Shown: positions 39,739-53,319 of the stretch, piece after piece
How positions within the stretch are numbered: position 1 is the stretch's first letter
Layout of the letters: every line of letters begins with the position of its first letter
Translations under genes and position numbers: made by a program
Assembly (NCBI GenBank): GCA_009695275.1
Contig: SIBF01000004.1
Span: forward strand, 1 to 53,475
Source of the DNA: Pedosphaera sp.
GTDB lineage: Bacteria; Verrucomicrobiota; Verrucomicrobiia; Limisphaerales; F1-12-MAGs170
Length of the DNA: 53,475 nt
Direction of reading: 5' to 3'
Notes under the pieces: generated by a model
Seen by the model: the letters and a program-made list of their open reading frames with translations, nothing else
Told to the model about the DNA's origin: nothing
Databases searched by the model: none

Positions 39739-42480
39739 TCAATTCACAAACACGAATTCATTGCTGTTGAACAGGAGCCGGCACAGGTTGGCCAGTCCAT
39801 GTTGCTTTGCGTAGGCCGACAATTCGCGCGCTTCATCGGCATCCGGTAAACGCCCCCAGGTCCACTCGCAAGCTTCGTTGATGCTATGTTCCAGACCGGT
39901 TGCCCCACGGTCGAGCTGCGAGGCAAAGTGTTCGGCATAGCGGACCGTGAAGGCACTGTTCCAAAGCGCGAGCGCTTGTTGCACAGTCACGGAGTTGTTG
40001 CGCACCGGGGCGAGTTGATCACCCGCCGGGCAGTCGAGCGCGTCCATCATCGGATCCGGCAAGGTGCGGAAAAGGAAACGATACACGCTGCGCCGGCGGG
40101 CCATGTCGCTATCCACGTCGAACTTTGTGTAATCGACTTTTGGCGTGACATGAATGCCTGGCTGCAGATCGAATTGCTGATCGCTCGGCCCACCCATGCG
40201 CAGCTCCAGCCGGCCGGACATGAGCAGAATGGCGTCACGCACCTCCTCGGCATCGAGCCGTGTGCGGTTCATGCGCGAGAGGTAGCGGTTGTCGGGATCA
40301 GTCGTGTCCAGTTTTCCAGCCGCCTGCCGGTAACTCGCGCTGGTAACGATCAATCGATGAAGCTTCTTCAACGAGCCCCCGGCGTCGTCACGGAACCAGA
40401 CTGCCAGCCAGTCCAACAACTCGGGATGAGTGGGTGCCGATCCCATGCGTCCGAAATCGTTGACTGTCTCGACAATTCCGCGCCCGAAATGAAGGTGCCA
40501 GATGCGATTGACGATGGAGCGCCACACAAATGGATTCTCGGGATGCGTGAGCCAGCGAGCCAGGGCCGCACGGCGGGGACCTTCGACCTTCGCATCAGCG
40601 ATTGCGAATTGACTCGGCAGCGCGCGCGCACAGGAGAGAGTGCCTGGAGATGCGAGTTCGAGAGGCTTCGTGATTTCGCCGCGCCGCAGCATTCGCACTT
40701 CTCGTGGAGCACCGGCAGGCTTGTGACTGGCGTCCGGGGGGAAATCACTCGCTCCGGCAAAGACCAGCGCAGGCTTTGGAAGCCGGGAGAGGTCGCGCGT
40801 GATCCGTTCGCGTGCGACGAACGTGGCGAGCTGCAAGCGCTGCTCTTCGGTGCGTTCGCGTGGGGCGATCTTCACGAGCTTGTCGATCGTCTCGGGAACG
40901 ATTCTTACGGGCACTGGCGCATCAGTGATTGCCAGCCGCAGGCGTCCGATCAGATGCCCTGCGCCATGAAGTTGTTTCAGCGTGATGACAAGCTTCGAGC
41001 CGTCCGGCACGGACGCGGCTTGAGCAAGTTCGAAAACAGCCTGGTGCGACTCACCTTCACGCGGATGAACTCCCCACGCGGTCTTCTCGTCGCTGTCCAG
41101 CGCGTGACGGATCGTCCATCCGTCCTGATCGAAATCCGAACTGGCGTTGGTGAGGGAGAGCACGCGCGGAACTTCCGCCCCGCGCTCAAACAGGAACGCC
41201 TGAAATTCGCTGAGGTGCAGGTTGCCATTTTCATTCCTGCCCGGCCCGCTCTTTGGCAGGCGCTCATCCGCCAGTAATTCGAGACGAATTGCCGTCAGTT
41301 TTGGCAGGCCAACGCTCGTGGTGATCGTGTAGGTGTCCCGCTCCGGACGCGTGCCACTGGCGAACAACGACGCGTCCGATTGCCGCTTCAACGTGGTCCC
41401 GTTGGCCGAGAGGAACGTCTCCGGTTCCAGGACTTGCCATGCCGGCGGGTGGTGCTGTTGTTCCTCCCAGTCGGCGACGTCGCGCGCCGCCGCATCACTC
41501 AACAGAAGCGCGCGGTCACCCTGAGCGGCGCGCTTCAAGAACTCCTGCAACTCGCGCCTGCGCTGGTGAACCGTCTGATCGGGATCGTAAAAGCGATTAG
41601 CCTTGTCGGTGCCGGCGAACACGGCTTGGAGCGCGTAATAATCCCGCTGCGGGATTGGATCAAACTTGTGATCGTGGCAGCGGGCGCATTGAACAGTCGT
41701 GCTGGTGAACGTCTGCATCACCGTCGTCACGATGTCATCCCGATCAATATAGCGGGCACTCTGGCGATCCAGGGTATCTTCGCGAATGTCACGCAACGAA
41801 CTTTCATCCCACGGGCCTGAGGCCAGCAGTCCCATCGCCACGATCCCTTGCGGGTCTTCAGGGAACAGCACATCCCCCGCGACCTGCTCCTGCACGAAGC
41901 GTGGGTAGGGTTTGTCCGCGTTGAACGCGCTGATCAGGTAATCGCGGTAAGGCCACGCGTTCGTGCGGATGCGATCCTGATCATGGCCGTGGGTCTCGGC
42001 GAAATGAACCGCATCCATCCAGAGCCGCGCCCAGCGTTCGCCAAAGCGCGGGCTTTCGAGCAGGCGGTCCACCAGCCGCTCGTAAGCGTTCGTTGAGGTG
42101 TCGTTGAGAAACGTGCTGATTTCTCCCGGCGAGGGTGGAAGACCCGTGAGGTCAAAAGAGACGCGGCGAATGAGTGTCCTCCCATCCGCTTCGCCTGCCG
42201 GCTTGAACCCCTTTTGGTCCAGCCTGGCCAGGATGAACTCATCAACCGGATTGCGTGCGGGGTTTCCCCCGGAACTTGCGAAAGAATGATTTTGAACCGC
42301 TGGTCTGACCAGCGGGCGAATGGCCCACCACTCATTGGTTTCAGTCGCACCGAGCCTTACCGCCAGCGAAAGGACGAGCCCGCAAAGAACCGGACTCCGT
42401 CGTTTGCGAATCACATGGCAAAGAAGCAAGCCAAGACCGTTCAACAACGAACGGAAGTTCAACCTGGCTGTCTGGGTCAT
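39739..42480 (-). CDS. DUF1549/DUF1553 (PSCyt2/PSD1) domain protein, long form
   Basis: CARCHDHKFDP, RWARLWMD, WRSIVNRIWHLHFGRGIV and LHRLIVTSASYRQ. ATG 42480 is chosen because the track start 42663 would overlap the divergent Gfo/Idh/MocA gene. Confidence 0.85.
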   Translation of the reverse strand: MTQTARLNFRSLLNGLGLLLCHVIRKRRSPVLCGLVLSLAVRLGATETNEWWAIRPLVRPAVQNHSFASSGGNPARNPVDEFILARLDQKGFKPAGEADGRTLIRRVSFDLTGLPPSPGEISTFLNDTSTNAYERLVDRLLESPRFGERWARLWMDAVHFAETHGHDQDRIRTNAWPYRDYLISAFNADKPYPRFVQEQVAGDVLFPEDPQGIVAMGLLASGPWDESSLRDIREDTLDRQSARYIDRDDIVTTVMQTFTSTTVQCARCHDHKFDPIPQRDYYALQAVFAGTDKANRFYDPDQTVHQRRRELQEFLKRAAQGDRALLLSDAAARDVADWEEQQHHPPAWQVLEPETFLSANGTTLKRQSDASLFASGTRPERDTYTITTSVGLPKLTAIRLELLADERLPKSGPGRNENGNLHLSEFQAFLFERGAEVPRVLSLTNASSDFDQDGWTIRHALDSDEKTAWGVHPREGESHQAVFELAQAASVPDGSKLVITLKQLHGAGHLIGRLRLAITDAPVPVRIVPETIDKLVKIAPRERTEEQRLQLATFVARERITRDLSRLPKPALVFAGASDFPPDASHKPAGAPREVRMLRRGEITKPLELASPGTLSCARALPSQFAIADAKVEGPRRAALARWLTHPENPFVWRSIVNRIWHLHFGRGIVETVNDFGRMGSAPTHPELLDWLAVWFRDDAGGSLKKLHRLIVTSASYRQAAGKLDTTDPDNRYLSRMNRTRLDAEEVRDAILLMSGRLELRMGGPSDQQFDLQPGIHVTPKVDYTKFDVDSDMARRRSVYRFLFRTLPDPMMDALDCPAGDQLAPVRNNSVTVQQALALWNSAFTVRYAEHFASQLDRGATGLEHSINEACEWTWGRLPDADEARELSAYAKQHGLANLCRLLFNSNEFVFVN

Positions 42481-42628
42481 GGTCGGGAGAATAGTCGCCA
42501 CACTTCCGCACGCAAGCACAGGCAATAGTCCTCGGCGACGGTCGAATGCTGCGGAGAACTCAATTTCTGATTGGTTCAGTTTAGAATTCCGCTTGCCAGA
42601 CACGCGTCCGGTGCCTACCAGAGACGGC

Positions 42629-44014
42629 ATGAACCGCCGTAAATTCCTCAAGCAAAGCTCCACCGTAATCGCCGCCGCTGCCGTCGCTTCCTATGTTCCC
42701 ACCACTTTCGCCGCCGGGAAGTCGATCCGCGTCGGCCTCATCGGCACGGGCTGGTACGGCAAGAGCAGTTTGCTTCGCGCCATTCAGGTAGCGCCGATCG
42801 AAGTCGTTTCGTTGTGCGACGTGGATAGCAAGATGGCTGGTGCCGCCGCCGACCTGGTGGCCACCCGCCAGCTTTCCAAGAAGAAGCCGCGCATCTACTC
42901 GGACTTCCGCAAAGCAATCGCCGAGAAGGATGTGGACATCATGATGGTCTCGACGCCAGACCACTGGCATGCCATTCCGGCCATCACCGCGATGCAGGCA
43001 GGGTTCGACGTGTATTGTGAGAAGCCGACCGGCGTGGATGTGGTTGAGAGCCAGTCGATGGTGGCCGCCGCACGGAAGTACAACCGCGTGATGCAGGTCA
43101 ACACTCAGCGCCGCAGCACGCCGCACCTGATCGAGGCAAAGGAGGAGATCATCAAGGCCGGTCTGCTCGGCAAAGTGCAGAAGGTCGAGATCGGGGTCTG
43201 GTGGCACATGCGCAACAACATGCCCGTTTCGGAGGCCCCGGACATCGCGCCACCGGAAGGATTCGATTACGAGATGTGGACCGGTCCGGCGCCAAAGCAG
43301 CCCTTCAACAAGATCATTCACTCGCGCGGCTGGCGGGCCTACATGGAATACGGCAACGGCATCGTCGGCGACATGTGTGTTCACATGTACGACATGACCC
43401 GCTGGTTGCTCGACCTCGGCTGGCCGAAGAGCATCACATCCTGGGGCGGCATCCTCAACGACCGCAATTCGCGCGCAAACATCACCGACACGCAGACGGC
43501 GATCTACCAGCACGACGACTTCGACGTGACGTGGAACCATCGCACCTGGGGCAAGTCGCCCGAGCCCGACCCTGACTTTCAATGGTTCGGCACGATCTAT
43601 GGCGAAAAAGGCGTCCTCAAGTGCAGCGTGTTCCGCTACGACTGGATTCCATATTCGTCCGGCAAGGTCGAGCGCACGCGCAAGGCGTTGTTCGAATACG
43701 ACAAGCACCCCGAGGACAAGGCGGAGGAGAAGGAATGGAATCTCGAAGGCCACGTGGCCTCCGCGATGCGCCGGCATTGGCTGAATTATCTCAACGCGAG
43801 AGAGAACCGCGGCAAGATTCTGCCCGTCGCCGACATCGAGCAGGCGCACATCTCCAGCTCGTCGTGCTTCCTGGCCAACCTTTCGCAGAAGCTGGGCCGC
43901 ACGCTCGAGTTCGATCCCGCCACGCATACGGTGAAAGGCGATGCCGAGGCGAACCGGCTGCTGGCCCGGCCTTACCGCACACCTTGGGTCCACCCGACCC
44001 CGGACAAAGTCTGA
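42629..44014 (+). CDS. Gfo/Idh/MocA family oxidoreductase, Tat signal
   Basis: MNRRKFLKQSSTVIAAAAVA Tat signal, then a Rossmann motif IRVGLIGTGWYG and EKP motif (VYCEKPT). Confidence 0.85.
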   Translation: MNRRKFLKQSSTVIAAAAVASYVPTTFAAGKSIRVGLIGTGWYGKSSLLRAIQVAPIEVVSLCDVDSKMAGAAADLVATRQLSKKKPRIYSDFRKAIAEKDVDIMMVSTPDHWHAIPAITAMQAGFDVYCEKPTGVDVVESQSMVAAARKYNRVMQVNTQRRSTPHLIEAKEEIIKAGLLGKVQKVEIGVWWHMRNNMPVSEAPDIAPPEGFDYEMWTGPAPKQPFNKIIHSRGWRAYMEYGNGIVGDMCVHMYDMTRWLLDLGWPKSITSWGGILNDRNSRANITDTQTAIYQHDDFDVTWNHRTWGKSPEPDPDFQWFGTIYGEKGVLKCSVFRYDWIPYSSGKVERTRKALFEYDKHPEDKAEEKEWNLEGHVASAMRRHWLNYLNARENRGKILPVADIEQAHISSSSCFLANLSQKLGRTLEFDPATHTVKGDAEANRLLARPYRTPWVHPTPDKV

Positions 44015-44048
44015 TCAAACACCAGAGCTCCTCTTAGCCGTAATTACC

Positions 44049-44193
44049 CAGTTGAAATGGAGAGCGCGGTCGTCTCGACCGCTGTTCTCGGCGTCTCGCC
44101 GAGAACTCAGTGGGCGTGACCAGTCACCAGAGGGTGGGTTTCCGGAGCGGACGAGCTGGTCAGCGAGACGCTGACCAGGGCGTGCGAGACGCA
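44049..44193. repeat. REP-like palindromic doublet (REPIN-like), intergenic
   Basis: Ends are ggagagcgcggtcgtctcgaccgc and gcgtgcgagacgcacgcgctcccc. Internal hairpins are gttctcggcg-tctc-gccgagaac and ctggtcagcg-agac-gctgaccag. Lies between convergent genes. Confidence 0.75.
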
Positions 44194-44219
44194 CGCGCTC
44201 CCCAATTGCGACTGAATAG

Positions 44220-45362
44220 TTACGGTTTAGTCGCTGAATTGCTGAAGCGGGGATTCCAAAATCGGCGTTCTATGAACCGGTGAAACAAACTGCCAAGCAG
44301 GATCGTTACGCCCACGCAGCAAGGAATCCGTAGTAGCAGAATCCCCATCGGGGTGTCGGCACCAGACGAATCAAAGGCATGCCCCACGAGCCGCACCACC
44401 GGCCAATGCACCAGATAAAGGCTGTAGCACATTAGTCCCAGAAAACGCAGTGGAGATAGAATCTGAAGGTTATACGCGGTGCCGTCCCATCGCTTCAGTC
44501 CGAGGATCAGCAGGGCGTAGGAAAATGCCGCCAGGTACGCTTGATTGAGTGGAAGCCGGAGTTGTCGCAAGTCTGGCACTGCCCACAGGATGCCGACCAC
44601 AAGCGGGAGACAAAACCAACCCCATCTTCGCAAGGGGACGTAATTCGAAACGTAATAGACCAGAACTCCCGAAGCGAACATCAGCCATTGACCATCGAGA
44701 AACAGGCCCTCCGTGCGCAACGTTCGCAGTGGAAACAGAACCAGGACGGTTACGATCAGCGTCACCAAACTCAGTGCATGAAAGAAAAATCGGCGCGTGA
44801 CGACCAACGCCAAACCTACCAGGAAATAGAACTGCTCTTCGAAACACAGCGTCCACGAAGGCGGCAGCAGGGGGTTTTCAGAGCCGCCAGTCAGATGCCA
44901 TCGCCAGGTTTCGGTCAGACTCAAATTCCCAAGCCACTGCCATCTCTTCAGTGATTGTGGCGGCGGGACGCCAAGAGCTTCAAAATAGCTCGCAGGAAGA
45001 AACCCCTCAGACAGCCATGCGAACAAGGCTGTCATAGCAAGCGCAGCCCAGAATGGCGGGTAAATCCGCCGGAAGCGTCGCCAGAAGAAAAACTTTGCCG
45101 CGCCAGGTTCCGATCGTAATAGGTCCGCCGATGCCGTGACGCAGTAGCCGCTGATCACAAAGAAGAGTGGAACTCCAATCCAGCACTTTCCCAGGATCGC
45201 AAAGATGCCAGCAGTCACGCCGCTGGTCTCCTGGAGCGGACTTCGCGCGGAATGATAAACGACGACGAGAAGGCAAGCAAAGCCCCGCCACAACGTCAGT
45301 GAGTCATAGCGAACTCGTGAGTGTGTTTCTCCGGCATTCTGCCTTTGGTCTTCCAGCTGCAA
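44220..45362 (-). CDS. Acyltransferase family 3 (OafA/YrhL-like) membrane protein
   Basis: RYDSLTLWRGFACLLVVVYH N-terminal motif, ~10 TM segments. The start is TTG 45362, since there is no upstream ATG. Confidence 0.8.
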   Translation of the reverse strand: MQLEDQRQNAGETHSRVRYDSLTLWRGFACLLVVVYHSARSPLQETSGVTAGIFAILGKCWIGVPLFFVISGYCVTASADLLRSEPGAAKFFFWRRFRRIYPPFWAALAMTALFAWLSEGFLPASYFEALGVPPPQSLKRWQWLGNLSLTETWRWHLTGGSENPLLPPSWTLCFEEQFYFLVGLALVVTRRFFFHALSLVTLIVTVLVLFPLRTLRTEGLFLDGQWLMFASGVLVYYVSNYVPLRRWGWFCLPLVVGILWAVPDLRQLRLPLNQAYLAAFSYALLILGLKRWDGTAYNLQILSPLRFLGLMCYSLYLVHWPVVRLVGHAFDSSGADTPMGILLLRIPCCVGVTILLGSLFHRFIERRFWNPRFSNSATKP

Positions 45363-45454
45363 ATCGTTTCACTCCACACACCGTGCGATAATCGGGCGAA
45401 AAGCCTTGCCAGCGGGGCCGTTTCTGACGCTCAACAGTGCCCGGTGAGAGAAAC

Positions 45455-48400
45455 TCACGCCAGGAGTGCTTTGGCCTTTGCCAACGCCTCGTCCAGCTTG
45501 CCCGGATCCTTGCCGCCACCGCGTGCGTTGTCGGGTTTGCCGCCGCCTTTGCCACCGACGATGGGGGCGATCTGCTGGATGATCTTTCCGGCCTGCACCT
45601 TCGCGGTGAAGTCCGGTGAGACGGAGGCGACCAGTGAGACGGCGTTGTTCGCTGCCCCACCGAGGACGATAACACCCTTGAACCGGCTCTTAAGCGCATC
45701 CACCACGGCTTGGAGATAATCCGCGTCGCCATCGGGGAAACCCTGCGTGATGAGCGGGATGCCGTTGACCGTCTCCGACCGGGTGAGCAACCAGGCCGCG
45801 GTCTGCGCCGCGTTTCGGGCGATGGACGTCTTGAGCGCCTTCTCCGACTCCTTCTGCTGCGCGAGCAGGCTCTCGACTTTCTTCTCCAACTCGGCGACGG
45901 GGGAATTCAACTTTCCCGCGACGGTGCGAAGGAGGTGAAGTTGCTGGTTCGCGAGTTCGTAAGCGGTGAGGCCGGCAACGGCTTCGATACGGCGCACGCC
46001 GGCAGCAATGGCGTTCTCGCTCACGATGCGGAACAGGCCAATCTCGCCTGTCGCACGGGTGTGGGTGCCGCCGCAGAGTTCCATTGAGTAACCATCCAGT
46101 TTGTTCGCCGCGCCGCCGATCTGGACGACGCGTACGGTGTCGCCGTATTTGTCGCCGAAGAATTGCATCACGTCCTTGCGCGATTTCACGTCGGCGTAGG
46201 GGACTTCGGTCCACGAGACGCCGGTGTTTTCAAGAATGCGTTCGTTGACGAGTTTCTCGATGTCGGCAACCTGCGCGGGTGTAAGCGGCGCGCTGTTGAA
46301 GTCGAAAGTCAGCTTGTCCGGGCCGACGAATGAACCTTTTTGCGACGCTTCCTGGCTTACGACTTCGTGCAGCGCCCAGTGGAGCAAGTGCGTGACGGTG
46401 TGGTGACGTTGGATGGCACTGCGGCGTTCGTGATCGACGGTGAGAAGGACTTCCGAACCGACAATTGGCAGCGCGTCGCCAGACGCGCTGGGAGCGCGAC
46501 CGTCCCGGTCGCCCTGCTGCGCGTCTCGCGCAGCAGATCGGTGGGGGTGGAAAACGAGAAACGTTGAGGAACTCGCGGCACCCTCGCGCGGGGAATCGGT
46601 CGGCGAGACGCCGACCGATGCGACCGGGACGGTCGCGCTCCCCTCTTCGATGAAATGGAGCCAGGTGTTGCCGGATTTTTGCGTGTTGGTGATGCGCCAG
46701 AGCTGGCCGCCGCCATTCAATTCGCCGGTGTCACCGACCTGGCCGCCCATCTCGGCGTAGCAGGCGGAAGCATCGAGGATGACAGCGGTCTTGTCCTTGA
46801 GCGAGACGACCTCCAGGACTTTGGCTTGGACGGCGAGGTGCTCGAAGCCGACGAACTTCGTGGGTGTCGTGGTCTCGATTTTCGAAAGTGAAATGACTTC
46901 CTTCTTCTGCGCGGCACGGGCGCGGGCGCGCTGCTCTTTCATCAGCTCTTCAAAGCCCTCCACGTCCACCGTCAGGCCACGTTCGCGCGCCATCAACTCG
47001 GTGAGGTCGAGCGGGAAGCCCTGCTCGTCATAAAGCCGGAACGCGAACGCACCTGAGATTTGGGCAGGGATGGCTTGGGGAGCGCGCCCGCCCCGGGCGC
47101 TGTTTCCCGCGCCCTCGCGGGAAACGGTCGGGCGTGGGACGTCACCGGACGCCGAGATTTCATTGTGCGTTCCCGAGCCGCCCGGGGCGGGCGCGCTCCC
47201 TGGCGCATCGGGAGTCCACAGCCAGCGATAATTCTCCGACGAGGGAACCACGGCGTTGTCCCAGGGATTGCGGCAGATGTAATGAAACTTCTCTTCCAAG
47301 TCCGAGTCGCCTCGCATCAGGCGGTCAAAAAAATCTTCCTCCCAAATATGAACTCCAGAGACCTTGGCCGCTTTGTTGATCTTGTGTGCGGTCGTGGACT
47401 TGATTCCGTGGAGGATTTCTCCGAGCGGATAAAAGACCGGTTTGCCGTCTTTGTCTTGCTCCTTGATTTGGGGTTCGAACAGCAGGTGAACATGGTCGGG
47501 CATCACGCGCGCGGCAAAAAGTTGATACTGCCGATGGGTGTGAGCATAGAGAACGCTCTCCAGCACGATGTCGCGCTCGGCCGGAGTGAGTTGCCGTTTC
47601 TCTCGCGTGGAGAAGGTCACCATGTATTTGCCCCAGGGTCGTTCGAAATGCGGCAGGCGTCTTTTGGAATAGGTAGCACCGGGGTTGTCGGACGCTCTGG
47701 GGCCGACCGCGAGGGCGCGGTCGGCTGCGCCCGGGGCGGGCGCGCTCCCCATCACCAATGGAAGCGGCGATCCCGCAGTCATGTGTGTCTTGTTTCCAAG
47801 TGTAATTCGAGCGGGACCACCCTGAATCAGACTCGCTTCCTCGTTGAAGAGCGCGATACCTTTGTCGAGCGTCTTGTTAAACGCCTCCTCCTCACGCTGG
47901 ATGACCTCCTGCACATGGGCTTTCCGGGCGCGAATTTCAGGGAAGACATCGCCCATTGTGTCGGCGAGCACGTCCACGAGCTTGTAGAAGAACGGTTGGT
48001 GGAAGCCGAGCGTGCGGCCGTAGCGCACGGCGCGGCGCAGGATGCGGCGGAGGACGTAGTTGCGGTCGGTGTTGCCGGGTTGGATGCCGTCGGCAATCGC
48101 AAACGAGAGCGTGCGGATGTGATCGGCAATAACCCGGAAGGCGATATCGAGCGCGATTTGCTCCGCACCATGGGCAGCGCGACCGTCCCGGTCGCTCTGT
48201 TGCGCGTCTCGCGCAACAGCCCCGGGGGTGTGGGAAGCGAGAGATGTTGAGGAACTCGCGGCACCCTCGCGCGCGGAATCGGTCGGCGGGACGCCGACCG
48301 ATGCGACCGGGACGGTCGCGCTCCCCGTCGCTTCGCGACGTAGCTTTTCCTCGGTCGCAGCGTCGGGTGTCCAGAGCCATCGATAGTTTTCCGTGGATGG

Positions 48401-49867
48401 CGCGACGCCGGAATCCCACGGGTTGCGGCAGATGTAGTGGAACTTCTCTTCGAGATCGGCGTCGCCACGAATCATGCGGTCGAACGATTCGTTCTCCCAC
48501 ACTTGGCCCGTGGTGTTTTCCGCCTTGTTGATCTCGTGGGCGGTGAACGATTTGATTGAGTGCATCAACTCGGACAGCGGCCAGAACACGGGCTTGCCTT
48601 CCTTGTCCTCCTCTTTGATCTGCGGCTCGAACAGGAAATGAACGTGATCGGGCATGACGCAGGCGGCATACATCTGATAGCGGCGCTGATCGTGTCCGAA
48701 AAGGAGGCTCTTGAGCACGATGTCCTGCGCTTGCGGCGAAAGCTGACGACGCTCGCGCGTTGTGAAACTAACCATGTATTTCGCCCACGGATGCTCGAAG
48801 TGCGGAAGGCGGCGCTTGTAGTAGGTAGCTTGAGGAGCGCGACCGTCACGGTCGCTCTGCTGCGCGTCCCGCGCGGCAGATCCGGGAGCGTGGGAAGCAG
48901 ATGATGCCGTTGGACTCGTCGCGCGCGTGGGATCGGGCGGCGGGACGCCGACCGGGGCGACCGGGACGGTCGCGCTCCCCGCTCCCTGCGGGAGTGTGCT
49001 GCCATAGCGTTTTCCACTCATTGCTTCCAGCGCGTCGAAGATCGGCCGAAAGATGTCGGTTTCATAGTTGGAGATTCTGGCGTTGGCGAAATCGGTCAGA
49101 CCCTTTGTGCCCTGCATGATGCTCGTGACGCGCTCGAAGCCCATGCCCGTATCCACGTGCTGGGCAGGCAACGGGGAGAATGTGCCGTCCGGGTTCGCGT
49201 TGAACTGGATGAAGACCAGGTTCCAGATCTCGATGCAGCGGGCGTCGCCTTTGTTGACAAGTGAACCCTTGGTGTCGCCAGCGGGCGTCAAATCAACGTG
49301 CAGTTCGGAGCAGGGACCGCATGGCCCGGTCTCACCCATCATCCAGAAGTTGTCTTTCTTGTTGCCGTTGACAATGTGGGCGGCGGGATCGAGGCCGACG
49401 CTGCGGAACTTTTCGGCCCAGAAGTTCCATGCTTCCTCGTCGCGCTCGGCAGGATCACCAATGGATTTGTCCGGATTGTAAATCGTGGCATAGAGCCGTT
49501 GGGGCGGAAATTTCCAGACACCGATAACCAATTCCCACGCCCACTCAATAGCCTCTTTCTTGAAGTAATCGCCGAAGGACCAGTTGCCGAGCATTTCGAA
49601 GAACGTGTGGTGGTAGGTATCAAGGCCGACGTCGTCGAGGTCGTTGTGCTTGCCGCCGGCGCGGATGCACTTCTGGGTGTCGGCGGCGCGGCCGGGTGTG
49701 TAGGGGCACCTGGTCTGGCCGAGGAAGATGGGCACGAACTGGTTCATGCCGGCGTTCGTGAACAGGAGGTTCGGCGAATCGGGCATTAGCGAGGACGATG
49801 GGACGATGGAGTGCTGCTTCGACTTGAAGAAGTCGAGAAACGACTGGCGGATTTGCGAACTCGTCAT
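45455..49867 (-). CDS. alaS: Alanine--tRNA ligase with three in-frame REP/RAYT insertions (1470 aa)
   Basis: ATG 49867 (MTSSQIRQSFLDFF). FTNAGMNQF, RAGGKHNDLDDVG, HHTFFEMLGNWSFGDYFK, WMMGETGPCGPCSE, VDTGMGFERV; FRVIADHIRTL; FRLYDEQGFPLDLT; editing HTVTHLLHWAL and CGGTHT; C-terminal GGGGKPDNARGGG. A single ORF with no internal stops. Confidence 0.9.
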   Translation of the reverse strand: MTSSQIRQSFLDFFKSKQHSIVPSSSLMPDSPNLLFTNAGMNQFVPIFLGQTRCPYTPGRAADTQKCIRAGGKHNDLDDVGLDTYHHTFFEMLGNWSFGDYFKKEAIEWAWELVIGVWKFPPQRLYATIYNPDKSIGDPAERDEEAWNFWAEKFRSVGLDPAAHIVNGNKKDNFWMMGETGPCGPCSELHVDLTPAGDTKGSLVNKGDARCIEIWNLVFIQFNANPDGTFSPLPAQHVDTGMGFERVTSIMQGTKGLTDFANARISNYETDIFRPIFDALEAMSGKRYGSTLPQGAGSATVPVAPVGVPPPDPTRATSPTASSASHAPGSAARDAQQSDRDGRAPQATYYKRRLPHFEHPWAKYMVSFTTRERRQLSPQAQDIVLKSLLFGHDQRRYQMYAACVMPDHVHFLFEPQIKEEDKEGKPVFWPLSELMHSIKSFTAHEINKAENTTGQVWENESFDRMIRGDADLEEKFHYICRNPWDSGVAPSTENYRWLWTPDAATEEKLRREATGSATVPVASVGVPPTDSAREGAASSSTSLASHTPGAVARDAQQSDRDGRAAHGAEQIALDIAFRVIADHIRTLSFAIADGIQPGNTDRNYVLRRILRRAVRYGRTLGFHQPFFYKLVDVLADTMGDVFPEIRARKAHVQEVIQREEEAFNKTLDKGIALFNEEASLIQGGPARITLGNKTHMTAGSPLPLVMGSAPAPGAADRALAVGPRASDNPGATYSKRRLPHFERPWGKYMVTFSTREKRQLTPAERDIVLESVLYAHTHRQYQLFAARVMPDHVHLLFEPQIKEQDKDGKPVFYPLGEILHGIKSTTAHKINKAAKVSGVHIWEEDFFDRLMRGDSDLEEKFHYICRNPWDNAVVPSSENYRWLWTPDAPGSAPAPGGSGTHNEISASGDVPRPTVSREGAGNSARGGRAPQAIPAQISGAFAFRLYDEQGFPLDLTELMARERGLTVDVEGFEELMKEQRARARAAQKKEVISLSKIETTTPTKFVGFEHLAVQAKVLEVVSLKDKTAVILDASACYAEMGGQVGDTGELNGGGQLWRITNTQKSGNTWLHFIEEGSATVPVASVGVSPTDSPREGAASSSTFLVFHPHRSAARDAQQGDRDGRAPSASGDALPIVGSEVLLTVDHERRSAIQRHHTVTHLLHWALHEVVSQEASQKGSFVGPDKLTFDFNSAPLTPAQVADIEKLVNERILENTGVSWTEVPYADVKSRKDVMQFFGDKYGDTVRVVQIGGAANKLDGYSMELCGGTHTRATGEIGLFRIVSENAIAAGVRRIEAVAGLTAYELANQQLHLLRTVAGKLNSPVAELEKKVESLLAQQKESEKALKTSIARNAAQTAAWLLTRSETVNGIPLITQGFPDGDADYLQAVVDALKSRFKGVIVLGGAANNAVSLVASVSPDFTAKVQAGKIIQQIAPIVGGKGGGKPDNARGGGKDPGKLDEALAKAKALLA
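46490..46642. repeat. REP doublet family A (insertion 3 in alaS), 153 bp
   Basis: Exact 23-nt inverted termini gggagcgcgaccgtcccggtcgc / gcgaccgggacggtcgcgctccc, plus inner hairpins with tctc/gaga loops. Translated as 51 codons, GSATVPVASVGVSPTDS...DRDGRAP. Confidence 0.85.
47078..47200. repeat. REP doublet family B (C-terminal flank of insertion 2), 123 bp
   Basis: Exact 22-nt inverted termini gggagcgcgcccgccccgggcg / cgcccggggcgggcgcgctccc. Inner hairpin tttcccgcg-ccct-cgcgggaaa. Translated as 41 codons. Confidence 0.85.
47201..47727 (-). mobile_element. RAYT-type (IS200-like Y1/HUH) transposase module 2, fused in-frame inside alaS
   Basis: YSKRRLPHFERPWGKYMVTF..., HUH motif PDHVHLLF, and catalytic-Tyr motif KFHYICRNPW. 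No start or stop of its own; same frame as alaS. Confidence 0.8.
47728..47749. repeat. Single family-B REP (N-terminal flank of insertion 2)
   Basis: cgcccggggcgggcgcgctccc, identical to the right arm at 47179..47200. Preceded by the hairpin gccgaccgc-gaggg-gcggtcggc. Confidence 0.75.
48173..48325. repeat. REP doublet family A (C-terminal flank of insertion 1), 153 bp
   Basis: Left arm ggcagcgcgaccgtcccggtcgc (1 substitution), right arm gcgaccgggacggtcgcgctccc. Same internal layout as 46490..46642. Confidence 0.85.
48326..48832 (-). mobile_element. RAYT-type (IS200-like Y1/HUH) transposase module 1, fused in-frame inside alaS
   Basis: YYKRRLPHFEHPWAKYMVSF..., HUH motif PDHVHFLF, and KFHYICRNPW. 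169 codons, no stop, same frame as alaS. Confidence 0.8.
48833..48979. repeat. REP doublet family A (N-terminal flank of insertion 1), 147 bp
   Basis: Left arm aggagcgcgaccgtcacggtcgc (2 substitutions), right arm gcgaccgggacggtcgcgctccc. Translated as 49 codons, GSATVPVAPVGVPPPD...DRDGRAP. Confidence 0.85.
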
Positions 49868-50077
49868 TCGTTGAAATGTTAAATCGTTAAATTGTGAACC
49901 GTAAAATCTTTGCCGCGAAAGAACGCAGAGAACACAAAGAATTCTTCCGCAACAAGGCGGGGAAACTAGCCGAAACCGTCCACGAGAGGCGAGTGGAAGT
50001 TTTGGCCCTTTTGGAGGTTCCACTGAAGAGGCAAGCGTGCCCGGCAGCCTTTTCCGACAAAACAGCCGGAAGAGTAT

Positions 50078-50740
50078 TCAGGGCATGAAACGGGGGGGAG
50101 GTGCTTTCACGAACGTCGTCGCGCGGAGATAGATGGGTTCAAGCAGCTCTCCTGGCAGGAAGTTGCTTCGCGTAACCGCGAGCTGACCGATGGCAGATGC
50201 GGCTGGCTCAACGTCGTGTGCTGATTGGAATTTTGCGGATAACCCCGGTCCGAAAAGACCACATTGATCACCGAGCAGAGAGTCGAGTTGTTCACGAGAC
50301 TTGAGGTTCATGGCTTCGATAATCGCGATGGTATTCGGGAAAATGTTCAACAAGGTCACGTAGAATTCACCTCGCTGCGCATCAATGGCGATTCGCACTT
50401 TGTCCCGGAGGCCTCTTTGCTGGAGTTGAAATGCGATGGCGTCAGCGCTGCCAACGCCTTGGAGTTTCAGACCTGTCGCCAGTTGCCAGCCCTGGGCGAT
50501 GGAGATGGCTGCCCGGATGCCGGTGTAGGAACCAGGTCCGAGTCCAACCACGATCTCACTTATCTCGCCGCGTTTGAGCCCGGCAACTCCAAGCGCGTTT
50601 TGTATCAACGCCAGCGGACGCACATTGCGATCCCCGGCATCGGCGGCTTCTCCCAGGATCTTCGCGGCACTGTCGCCATTGGCGGAAAGGATCGCCGCGC
50701 TCCGGATATTTCCTGAGAATTCGAGCGCCAATGTGATCAT
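50078..50740 (-). CDS. tsaB: tRNA t6A37 biosynthesis protein TsaB (YeaZ)
   Basis: MITLALEFSG N-terminus and the GPGSYTGIRAAISIAQG motif. ATGA overlap with the tsaE stop. Confidence 0.8.
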   Translation of the reverse strand: MITLALEFSGNIRSAAILSANGDSAAKILGEAADAGDRNVRPLALIQNALGVAGLKRGEISEIVVGLGPGSYTGIRAAISIAQGWQLATGLKLQGVGSADAIAFQLQQRGLRDKVRIAIDAQRGEFYVTLLNIFPNTIAIIEAMNLKSREQLDSLLGDQCGLFGPGLSAKFQSAHDVEPAASAIGQLAVTRSNFLPGELLEPIYLRATTFVKAPPPRFMP

Positions 50741-52866: not shown

Positions 52867-52958
52867 CCGGCGGAAACTAAGCAGCGGCTTCGTGAGTTAC
52901 GATGGAAAAATGAGGTTGGCGCTGATTGCCGAAGGCTCTTATCCGAATCCATGCAACA

Positions 52959-53140
52959 GGAGCGCGGAATTCATTCCGCGTGGATCCTGCAAGGCCCCAA
53001 GGGCTGTAGGCTCGACGACATGCCAAGTGATCAAAAACCAGGTCATAGGAAAGTGACCAACGCGAAAAGCAATTTGCCGCGGCCGAAATCTCCGGCCAAA
53101 GTGGGAATTCCACGCGGCTGCGGAATAAATTCCGCGCTCC
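52959..53140. repeat. REP-like doublet, third family (GGAGCGCGGAAT..ATTCCGC)
   Basis: Left arm ggagcgcggaattcattccgcgtgga. Right arm (reverse complement) ggagcgcggaatttattccgcagccgcgtgga. Accounts for the spurious 138-aa ORF at 52877..53293. Confidence 0.7.
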
Positions 53141-53319
53141 TATTGAATTGTTCCGCATGTCCGCTGCGAGGCCTCCCCCAATTGACTTACACTCGGTGAA
53201 GTAATGAAAGACAAGCTGTTTTGACTGGCTGTCCCTTCGAACGATGCTTTCGCCACCGTAAAGCCCATCGTTGATGGAATGAAGGACTCTCACCGCTTTT
53301 CCATTGAGGGCGCGCTCCC

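Follow-up and report, generated by a model that had tools for sequence, protein, structure and literature searches.

The window analysed here, a 53,475-nt stretch of contig SIBF01000004.1 from Pedosphaera sp. (Verrucomicrobiota), carries an alaS gene into which an inverted doublet of repetitive extragenic palindromic (REP) units is set in frame, and this doublet, its origin and its retention in alanyl-tRNA synthetase (AlaRS) are the subject of this work. The host open reading frame (ORF) comprises 1522 codons with a probable ATG at 49867; Pfam finds in it the tRNA-synt_2c, tRNA_SAD and DHHA1 domains plus two Y1_Tnp domains, and the AlaRS chains of the PDB align to it as three blocks with inserts between them. 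Two in-frame modules with a REP-associated tyrosine transposase (RAYT-1 and RAYT-2) precede the doublet in the reading direction, and the place of the doublet is referred to below as site 3 (Table 1).

The doublet is built from the 23-mer GGGAGCGCGACCGTCCCGGTCGC, found at 46490-46512 on the forward strand and as its exact reverse complement at 46620-46642, and each copy encloses the 7-bp hairpin GCGACCG-TCC-CGGTCGC. At up to three mismatches the 23-mer has eight matches in the window, all within alaS between 46490 and 48979, against none in 100 shuffles. Two inverted REPs with a short spacer that fold into one hairpin define a REPIN, and the doublet has this structure: its inner arms are 85% complementary over 40 nt, and folding gives -71.6 kcal/mol (z = -10.5) for the single-stranded DNA and -110.3 kcal/mol (z = -10.4) for the strand of the mRNA. 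Translated in the frame of alaS, it gives GSATVPVASVGVSPTDSPREGAASSSTFLVFHPHRSAARDAQQGDRDGRAP, namely GSATVPVASVGV...DRDGRAP, with the peptide stretch GSATVPVASVGVSPTDSPREGAASSSTFLVFHPHR, between NTWLHFIEE and SASGDALPIVGSEV of AlaRS, and both of its edges are codon boundaries. An earlier sequence-only reading had described a doublet of 153 nt, perfectly inverted termini of 23 nt, codon-aligned edges and this translation with these flanks, all of which proved exact; the two inner hairpins that it drew are also present, with loops of 3 nt instead of 4 nt, a trivial difference. Because the doublet is stop-free in five of the six frames, only its length, a multiple of three, is informative, and the missing stops are unremarkable. 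No terminator-like site was found in the doublet and no promoter-like site on either strand of 44000-50100, and Rfam offered no credible family for the doublet, the sole match being a plant miRNA model on an intergenic doublet (E = 0.81).

Table 1. Features of the alaS locus and of the neighbouring intergenic doublet, in window positions.
Feature	Position	Strand	Evidence
Inverted REP doublet (REPIN-like) at site 3, 153 nt = 51 alaS codons	46490..46642	-	sequence reading, repeat and fold analysis
5' terminal unit (coding orientation): tag GGGAGC and 7-bp hairpin GCGACCG-TCC-CGGTCGC	46620..46642	-	pairs invariant or compensated in 13 copies
Inner hairpin, 11-bp stem and 3-nt loop, coding strand ATCGGTCGGCG-TCT-CGCCGACCGAT	46595..46619	-	
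Central spacer, 58 nt, most variable part of the doublet	46537..46594	-	
Inner hairpin, 10-bp stem and 3-nt loop, coding strand CTGCTGCGCG-AGA-CGCGCAGCAG	46514..46536	-	
3' terminal unit (coding orientation), perfect inverted copy of the 23-mer	46490..46512	-	
Extra GAG codon at the 5' junction, not in empty orthologous sites	46643..46645	-	
Perfect 9-bp hairpin CAGCGCGTC-TGGC-GACGCGCTG adjoining the doublet	46469..46490	-	
Host ORF alaS	45455..50023	-	Pfam
Family-A doublet, C-terminal side of RAYT-1, 153 nt, closest relative (90%) and presumed source	48173..48325	-	
RAYT-1, in-frame REP-associated tyrosine transposase domain, HVH and YICRNP motifs	48326..48832	-	
Family-A doublet, N-terminal side of RAYT-1, 147 nt, 80% identical to the site-3 doublet	48833..48979	-	
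RAYT-2, second in-frame RAYT module, family-B termini GGGAGCGCGCCCGCCCCGGGCGC; RAYT domain 47201-47650	47078..47749	-	
Intergenic doublet, 146 nt, same four-hairpin plan and tag, termini GGAGAGCGCG...CGCGCTCCCC	44059..44204	+	

RAYT module 1 (48173-48979) consists of the transposase between a 147-nt and a 153-nt doublet, which are direct repeats of one another in the same phase. RAYT-1 keeps the HUH and catalytic tyrosine motifs (HVH, HYICRNPW) of a REP-associated tyrosine transposase and scores 80.4 bits against the NCBIfam model NF047646 (cut-off 80; model positions 4-145 of 146), while RAYT-2 scores 74.1 bits, just under this cut-off. RAYT-1 qualifies as the cognate RAYT of the site-3 doublet, as the doublets on its two sides are 80% and 90% identical to it. 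When the window is compared with two close relatives (our handles L121 and L120), the ratio of non-synonymous to synonymous differences per site (pN/pS) of RAYT-1 is 0.13-0.16 and its pS equals that of the AlaRS core; because of this low pN/pS and core-like pS, RAYT-1 is, judged by these comparisons, a constrained internal protein domain that has been vertically co-inherited and has co-diverged with alaS. A RAYT-size insert occupies one of two sites in all 120 of the best AlaRS homologues, and many of the closest relatives of RAYT-1 are embedded in long proteins, the ten tested being seven AlaRS, two RecG and one glycyl-radical enzyme. A sequence search with RAYT-1 against the PDB chains gave no match. 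In AlaRS proteins whose site 2 holds no RAYT (P0005, P0015, P0017, P0024), the region from KTLDKG to YDxxGFP is hypervariable (22-155 aa); this stretch looks ordinary and not REP-like, and it differs among close relatives.

The same 120 homologues, all from Verrucomicrobiota and long (1084-1408 aa), served as the orthologue set for site 3, where the length of the loop was measured between the anchors NTWLHFI and RHHTVTHLL; the set was drawn from called ORFs and is hence biased towards in-frame cases. The loop is empty in 47 orthologues (25-26 aa, EGGDAPAVGAxVTLxVxKxRRxAIQ; empty loop sequence GAAGGCGACGCGCTGCCA), measures 27-36 aa in 12 and 37-92 aa in 57, and houses a whole RAYT module in one (P0016, 251 aa), the anchors not being found in the remaining three. 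The DNA of the empty sites in L120 and L121 matches the window codon for codon around the insert. Judged by the empty sites and this alignment, the doublet is not an ancestral AlaRS loop but an insertion, the state that had been supposed from the sequence alone, and the supposed length of exactly 153 bp or 51 codons applies to the doublet itself, whereas the gain over the empty sites is 165 nt or 55 codons (3 + 153 + 9), namely the codon GAG, the doublet and AGC GCG TCT. The nine extra nucleotides at 46481-46489, read as SAS, correspond in reverse complement to the adjoining host codons GAC GCG CTG, and the 9-bp hairpin formed at this junction (46469-46490) may be a footprint of repair or insertion, or a collapsed older element.

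The origin of the insertion was traced in an alignment of 17 family-A doublets from ten alaS genes. The site-3 doublet is 90% identical to the C-side doublet of RAYT-1 in the same gene (48173-48325) and 80% identical to the N-side doublet there, compared with 78-83% for six C-side doublets of other alaS genes and 76-77% for the doublets in the same loop of L122 and L157; a range of 82-88% is also obtained for orthologous C-side doublets. It also has in common with 48173-48325 the state of a 6-nt indel and the C-side-type spacer sequence GAGGGTGCCGCGAGTTCCTCAAC. Since the identity of 90% stands against 76-77% at the same site elsewhere, and indel and spacer are held in common, the site-3 doublet is, as far as the alignment can tell, a local paralogue of the C-side doublet of its own gene; the sequence-only reading had likewise taken it for a copy of the family-A element flanking RAYT-1, and no orthologous or same-site doublet comes closer. 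It is a mosaic in one respect, its 3' inner hairpin having the N-side-type stem CTGCTGCGCG and the remainder being of C-side type. The two paralogues differ at 15 positions, of which 12 are non-synonymous and three synonymous (pN/pS 1.6). The copy probably dates from around the time when the L121 lineage, whose site is empty, split off, or from somewhat later; a neighbour-joining tree of 121 AlaRS cores is star-like, and the order of gains and losses at the three sites is not resolvable from it.

In 13 doublets, counting the pairing of the tags together with the four local hairpins, 96% of cells are paired and 15 pairs have compensatory changes, a level reached by none of 500 shuffles, while slid controls were 28-44% paired; in the 10-bp inner hairpin, C-G and T-A variants replace one another among the copies. 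Between the window and L121 or L120, the AlaRS core has a pS of about 0.5 and a pN/pS of 0.14-0.28, and the doublets flanking RAYT-1 have a pS of 0.21-0.30 and a pN/pS of 0.41-0.48. Because the hairpins covary, the pS of the doublets is about half that of the core, and pN/pS against the paralogue is 1.6, the doublets are, on these sequence measures, constrained as nucleic acid and weakly as peptide.

On the protein side, an AlphaFold2 model of residues 985-1522, built with 36 sequences, has a mean pLDDT of 69.6. Its beta-barrel is confident (pLDDT 87-94), and the insert (model residues 144-194) has a pLDDT of 32-42 and no secondary structure; it lies between the strands 136-141 (...WLHFIE) and 207-212 (LLTVDH), just ahead of the helix of the editing domain. 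The insert is thus predicted to be a disordered loop between two beta-barrel strands. The earlier suggestion that a REP doublet alone can be tolerated as a peptide insert agrees with the intact ORF, the purifying selection on the core, the loop inserts of 57 of the 120 orthologues and the modelled disorder, from which we infer the tolerance indirectly.

The loop of AlaRS has received such inserts many times. REP-derived loop inserts are present in 57 of the 120 orthologues and belong to at least six families (GSATVPVA, GARPSRS, GSARVPRA, GEHTRPRV/GAHAPSRV, VEQA(T/S)SL and GSAGVPPA), of which GARPSRS is the same 23-mer read in phase +1, and each of the nearest AlaRS relatives of the window has another state of the loop. 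The left junction, ATYGAAGA/GGGGAGC with the slash at the point of insertion, is identical in the window, L122 and L159, the last having a different hairpin family (GCACGCG), and it lies within 1-2 nt in L068, L103, L161 and L162; on the right side, the junction reads ...GCTCCCC/ATTCCCGG in most cases. In six to seven of nine alaS genes, the hairpin type at site 3 is that which flanks the RAYT of the same gene. By these sequence comparisons, cognate REPs have repeatedly landed in the loop, or been replaced there, in many Verrucomicrobiota, which was not recognised in the first reading of the sequence. Because junctions are shared and hairpin types match at the loop, the pattern points to repeated seeding from the resident REPtron (a RAYT with its flanking REP units), or replacement by conversion from it, filtered by what the loop tolerates.

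Beyond alaS, a scan of species-representative genomes with the query GGGAGCGCGNCCGNCCCGGNCGC gave at least 119 loci, mostly in Verrucomicrobiota (Limisphaerales, Pedosphaera) and in Gemmataceae metagenome-assembled genomes (MAGs). Among the 119 matches listed, 114 lie elsewhere and five in alaS, so that the 23-mer is not confined to this gene. Hosts with Pfam domains on both sides of the unit are ValRS (in three MAGs, L034, L049 and L077), PurL (L045), NuoL (L014) and a RecG that also has an in-frame RAYT; long ORFs with the 23-mer near the ORF start, possibly upstream of the true start, were left out of this intragenic count. A metagenome scan with the family-A half-unit returned 35 loci, seven in alaS and the remainder mostly single REP units. 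Complete doublets of the 147/153-nt family were in alaS in all 16 cases, and one further relative of 150 nt is also in alaS; L134 has a doublet of 138 nt in which the spacer and the right inner hairpin differ. A protein search with the 51-aa insert peptide gave two candidates and was uninformative on host proteins.

The source genome is represented by the 53-kb window, in which an intergenic doublet at 44059-44204 lies between the convergent ORFs 42320-44014 (+) and 44220-45362 (-), the classical position of REPs; therefore, this genome has members of the superfamily outside alaS as well. The REP unit can be regarded as dispersed because its loci are mostly outside alaS and because intergenic doublets occur in the window. 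On this distribution the 147/153-nt doublet appears tied to the alaS REPtron, though the REP unit is dispersed.

Based on the above comparisons, we propose, with a probability of roughly 65%, that the site-3 doublet arose when a RAYT copied the C-side doublet into a permissive loop, and that it is kept there as a disordered peptide within the translated protein. First, the C-side doublet of RAYT-1 would have been copied about 1.5 kb downstream within the same gene, after the lineage had split from the relatives with an empty site, most likely by a RAYT that cleaved folded single-stranded DNA and transferred the strand, and would have landed in the loop that joins the final two strands of the beta-barrel subdomain of AlaRS. 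Upon insertion, only in-frame, stop-free inserts in the permissive loop could survive, alaS being essential, and the gain of 165 nt would be read through as a disordered surface loop of about 55 residues. Selection would then conserve the hairpins, which are the presumed RAYT substrates, and not the peptide, and the doublet would be retained because it is nearly neutral and its imprecise loss is impossible. Mobilisation by the resident RAYT, which the sequence-only reading had raised, is plausible, because RAYT-1 has a full-length NCBIfam match, keeps its motifs, is under purifying selection and agrees in hairpin type with site 3 in six to seven of nine genes.

Several points weigh against this proposal. 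The insert is 165 nt long and not a clean 153-nt unit, and it comes with an inverted duplication of 9 nt of host sequence at the 3' junction. Complete doublets were found only inside alaS, so no dispersed REPIN population is demonstrated. No target-site signature could be defined, since the logo of 145 REP termini yields an extension of the tag only, and a GCTCC-like motif 10-13 nt upstream of all three alaS inserts, considered as a general target, was rejected as it shows no enrichment upstream of 122 other copies. RAYT-mediated transfer, translation of the insert and its near-neutrality are all reached indirectly, and intragenic recombination or gene conversion could yield the same identity of 90%.

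The last point leads to the first rival, which is rather unlikely although the strongest of them: an older doublet at site 3 would have been homogenised by gene conversion from the C-side doublet of RAYT-1, and the 90% would reflect concerted evolution. Three direct repeats within 2.5 kb are good substrates for conversion, the window copy is a mosaic that combines an N-side-type 3' inner stem (CTGCTGCGCG) with a C-side-type rest, and family-A doublets of 153 nt occupy the same loop in L122, P0042 and L157, that of L122 with the left junction ATTGAAGA/GGGGAGC and the phase of the window. However, these three genes are distant and their 3' remnant CAATCCGAGxCGCCCGCGCTCCCC is not in the window, the left junction of L157 is off by five codons, and the AlaRS relatives closest by core distance hold the empty, GSARVPRA, VEQA or GARPSRS states.

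Less likely again is a relic comparable to a solo long terminal repeat, left when recombination between direct flanking doublets deleted a RAYT module from site 3. The doublets of RAYT-1 are direct and in the same phase, a deletion between them would retain a single doublet, in frame and about 150 nt long, and a whole RAYT module does occupy exactly this loop in P0016/L123. Yet the REP family of that module is CACACGCG, none of the 120 orthologues has a family-A RAYT module at site 3, and a crossover between N-side and C-side doublets predicts an N-type 5' and a C-type 3' part, the opposite of the window copy, whose nearest relative is moreover the extant C-side doublet of RAYT-1 and not a diverged third lineage.

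Translational bypassing is exemplified by T4 gene 60 and the mitochondrial byps, and the doublet might similarly stay untranslated, by bypassing or through processing of the RNA at its long stem. A perfect terminal stem of 23 bp is possible on the mRNA strand as part of its -110 kcal/mol structure, and openness in five of six frames makes the missing stops weak proof of translation. This is nevertheless very improbable, as all loop inserts of the 120 orthologues, a set of called ORFs, are in frame in at least six families and three phases of the 23-mer, Rfam gives no match, and whole RAYT domains embedded in the same manner are under protein-level purifying selection, so that read-through occurs. 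Moreover, we know of no splicing or bypass signals for REPs. Finally, an ancestral, lineage-specific AlaRS loop that is palindromic by appearance only has nothing more than the in-frame state in its favour and is rejected with near certainty by the 47 empty sites, the codon-level alignment, the 90% identity to another segment of alaS, the pN/pS of 1.6 against this paralogue and the presence of the 23-mer at more than 100 unrelated loci.

Among known systems, the doublet resembles REPINs and REP-BIME (bacterial interspersed mosaic element) doublets with their RAYT, such as the REPINs of P. fluorescens and the REPtrons of E. coli. There, too, a pair of inverted REP units folds into a single long hairpin, the GC-rich stem-loop has a conserved tag on its 5' side, a RAYT gene is bordered by these units, and hairpins are kept by compensatory change. 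The differences are that the tag here is (K)GGGAGCGCG and not GTAG or CGTC, that each half has two hairpins, that doublet and RAYT lie inside a protein-coding gene and in frame, and that complete doublets were found only in alaS and not as a dispersed extragenic population. The terminal tag (G/T)GGGAGCGCG is present in 145 copies, to which the flank logo adds a pyrimidine at -2. The doublet does not belong to the GTAG or CGTC superfamilies of REPs, as GTAG is absent and CGTC is seen in family A solely across the junction of stem and loop and is lacking in family B (GCGCCCGCCCCGGGCGC). REP/TnpA-REP systems were reportedly also the subject of work by Ton-Hoang in 2012. The TnpA-REP of E. coli processes REPs on folded single-stranded DNA in vitro (Corneloup 2021, PMC8266576).

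In-frame palindromic inserts are usually deemed rare curiosities, with the Rickettsia palindromic elements (RPEs) as the standard example, which are palindromic in-frame inserts in functional genes (Ogata et al. 2000, cited in PMC3733652). RPEs resemble the doublet in being palindromes of about 100-150 bp that lie in frame in functional, often essential genes and add about 30-50 residues thought to lie on the protein surface, and differ in sequence and host phylum and in that no cognate transposase is known for them, whereas an apparently active RAYT is predicted in the same ORF here and one loop has been struck by several families. By function the doublet is of the RPE type, being an in-frame insert in a protein whose core is under purifying selection and lying in a loop modelled as disordered; membership in the RPE sequence families (RPE-1 to RPE-8) is very unlikely by phylum and tag, and the likeness is best regarded as a functional analogy.

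Further precedents are the intragenic GTAG/CGTC REPs, found in ORFs that include GlyRS beta and IleRS and also present in Opitutus terrae (Di Nocera et al. 2013, PMC3733652), and the REPs in frame inside tnpA-REP of subclass 2.4 (Quentin et al. 2018, PMC6006769). There too, REP monomers or dimers lie in ORFs without breaking the frame, aminoacyl-tRNA synthetases are among the hosts, and Verrucomicrobia are included. In contrast to the present case, the inserts of the former study are mostly 20-30 aa and of GTAG or CGTC families, with AlaRS not listed, and neither study reports a RAYT in frame in a housekeeping gene or a single recurrent loop. Our full-text literature search gave no paper that links RAYT or TnpA-REP with alanyl-tRNA synthetase, or that describes REP or RAYT inserts in alaS. 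Therefore, the in-frame REP insert is a known phenomenon, and its context, a gene-resident REPtron, appears to be undescribed.

Inteins with homing endonucleases occupy an analogous niche, as selfish elements in frame in an essential gene, where imprecise loss is lethal; unlike them, the doublet sits in a variable loop instead of a conserved active-site motif and is presumably kept in the mature protein. The doublet itself is not an intein, since the insert starts with Gly-Ser, ends with Arg-Ala-Pro and has no HN motif, and Pfam finds no Hint domain.

A wider reading, which we hold tentatively and as less probable than its opposite, is that an undescribed lifestyle of gene-resident REPtrons exists, in which a clade of in-frame RAYTs in housekeeping genes seeds cognate doublets into permissive loops. 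Its hosts would possibly be AlaRS above all, besides RecG and the glycyl-radical enzyme, with the RAYT expressed as an internal domain under purifying selection; doublets would possibly be seeded both into the own host gene and into other essential genes (ValRS, PurL, NuoL). If true, the AlaRS loop would be a true target hotspot at which the host A-L-P codons (GCGCTCCCC) may mimic the REP tag, and a Y1 transposase system would have a non-splicing, intein-like strategy of persistence. The alaS gene presents in one essential gene the presumed source (RAYT and doublets), its product (the solo doublet, 1.5 kb from it) and the filter (the disordered loop), and more than 100 related lineages repeat the process at this loop. 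It offers a natural system for asking how RAYTs choose targets, whether REP hairpins are kept for the element or the host, which amount of foreign peptide a tRNA synthetase can accept, and whether a Y1 transposase is able to work as an internal domain of a host enzyme. It also explains the widespread "alanyl-tRNA synthetase/RayT" fusion calls in metagenomes of Verrucomicrobiota.

Some minor observations concern the hosts and the forms of the unit. Aminoacyl-tRNA synthetases make up eight of the 11 clear intragenic cases among the 119 loci listed, a count not corrected for shared ancestry. A RecG helicase of a Chthoniobacteraceae MAG has a whole in-frame RAYT module between its DEAD and Helicase_C domains (L052:6276-6900), as also seen in P0130 and P0139; in L052 the module is flanked by single REP units with the same tag, and a close RAYT relative is embedded in a glycyl-radical enzyme of the pyruvate formate-lyase (PFL)-like type (P0129). 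Near the end of the window, at about 52956-53141, lies a probably intergenic inverted doublet with GGAGCGCG termini, whose hairpin is a different one (GCGGAAT-TCA-TTCCGC) and whose interior, about 140 nt long, is richer in AT. About 11 peat metagenome loci (L125, L131, L143, L148, L151, L154 and others) have a single family-A REP unit followed by the AT-rich CATCTTCTCGGTTCCATATAAATCATATAGATTG, which suggests from sequence that another repeated element, too, ends in the REP unit.

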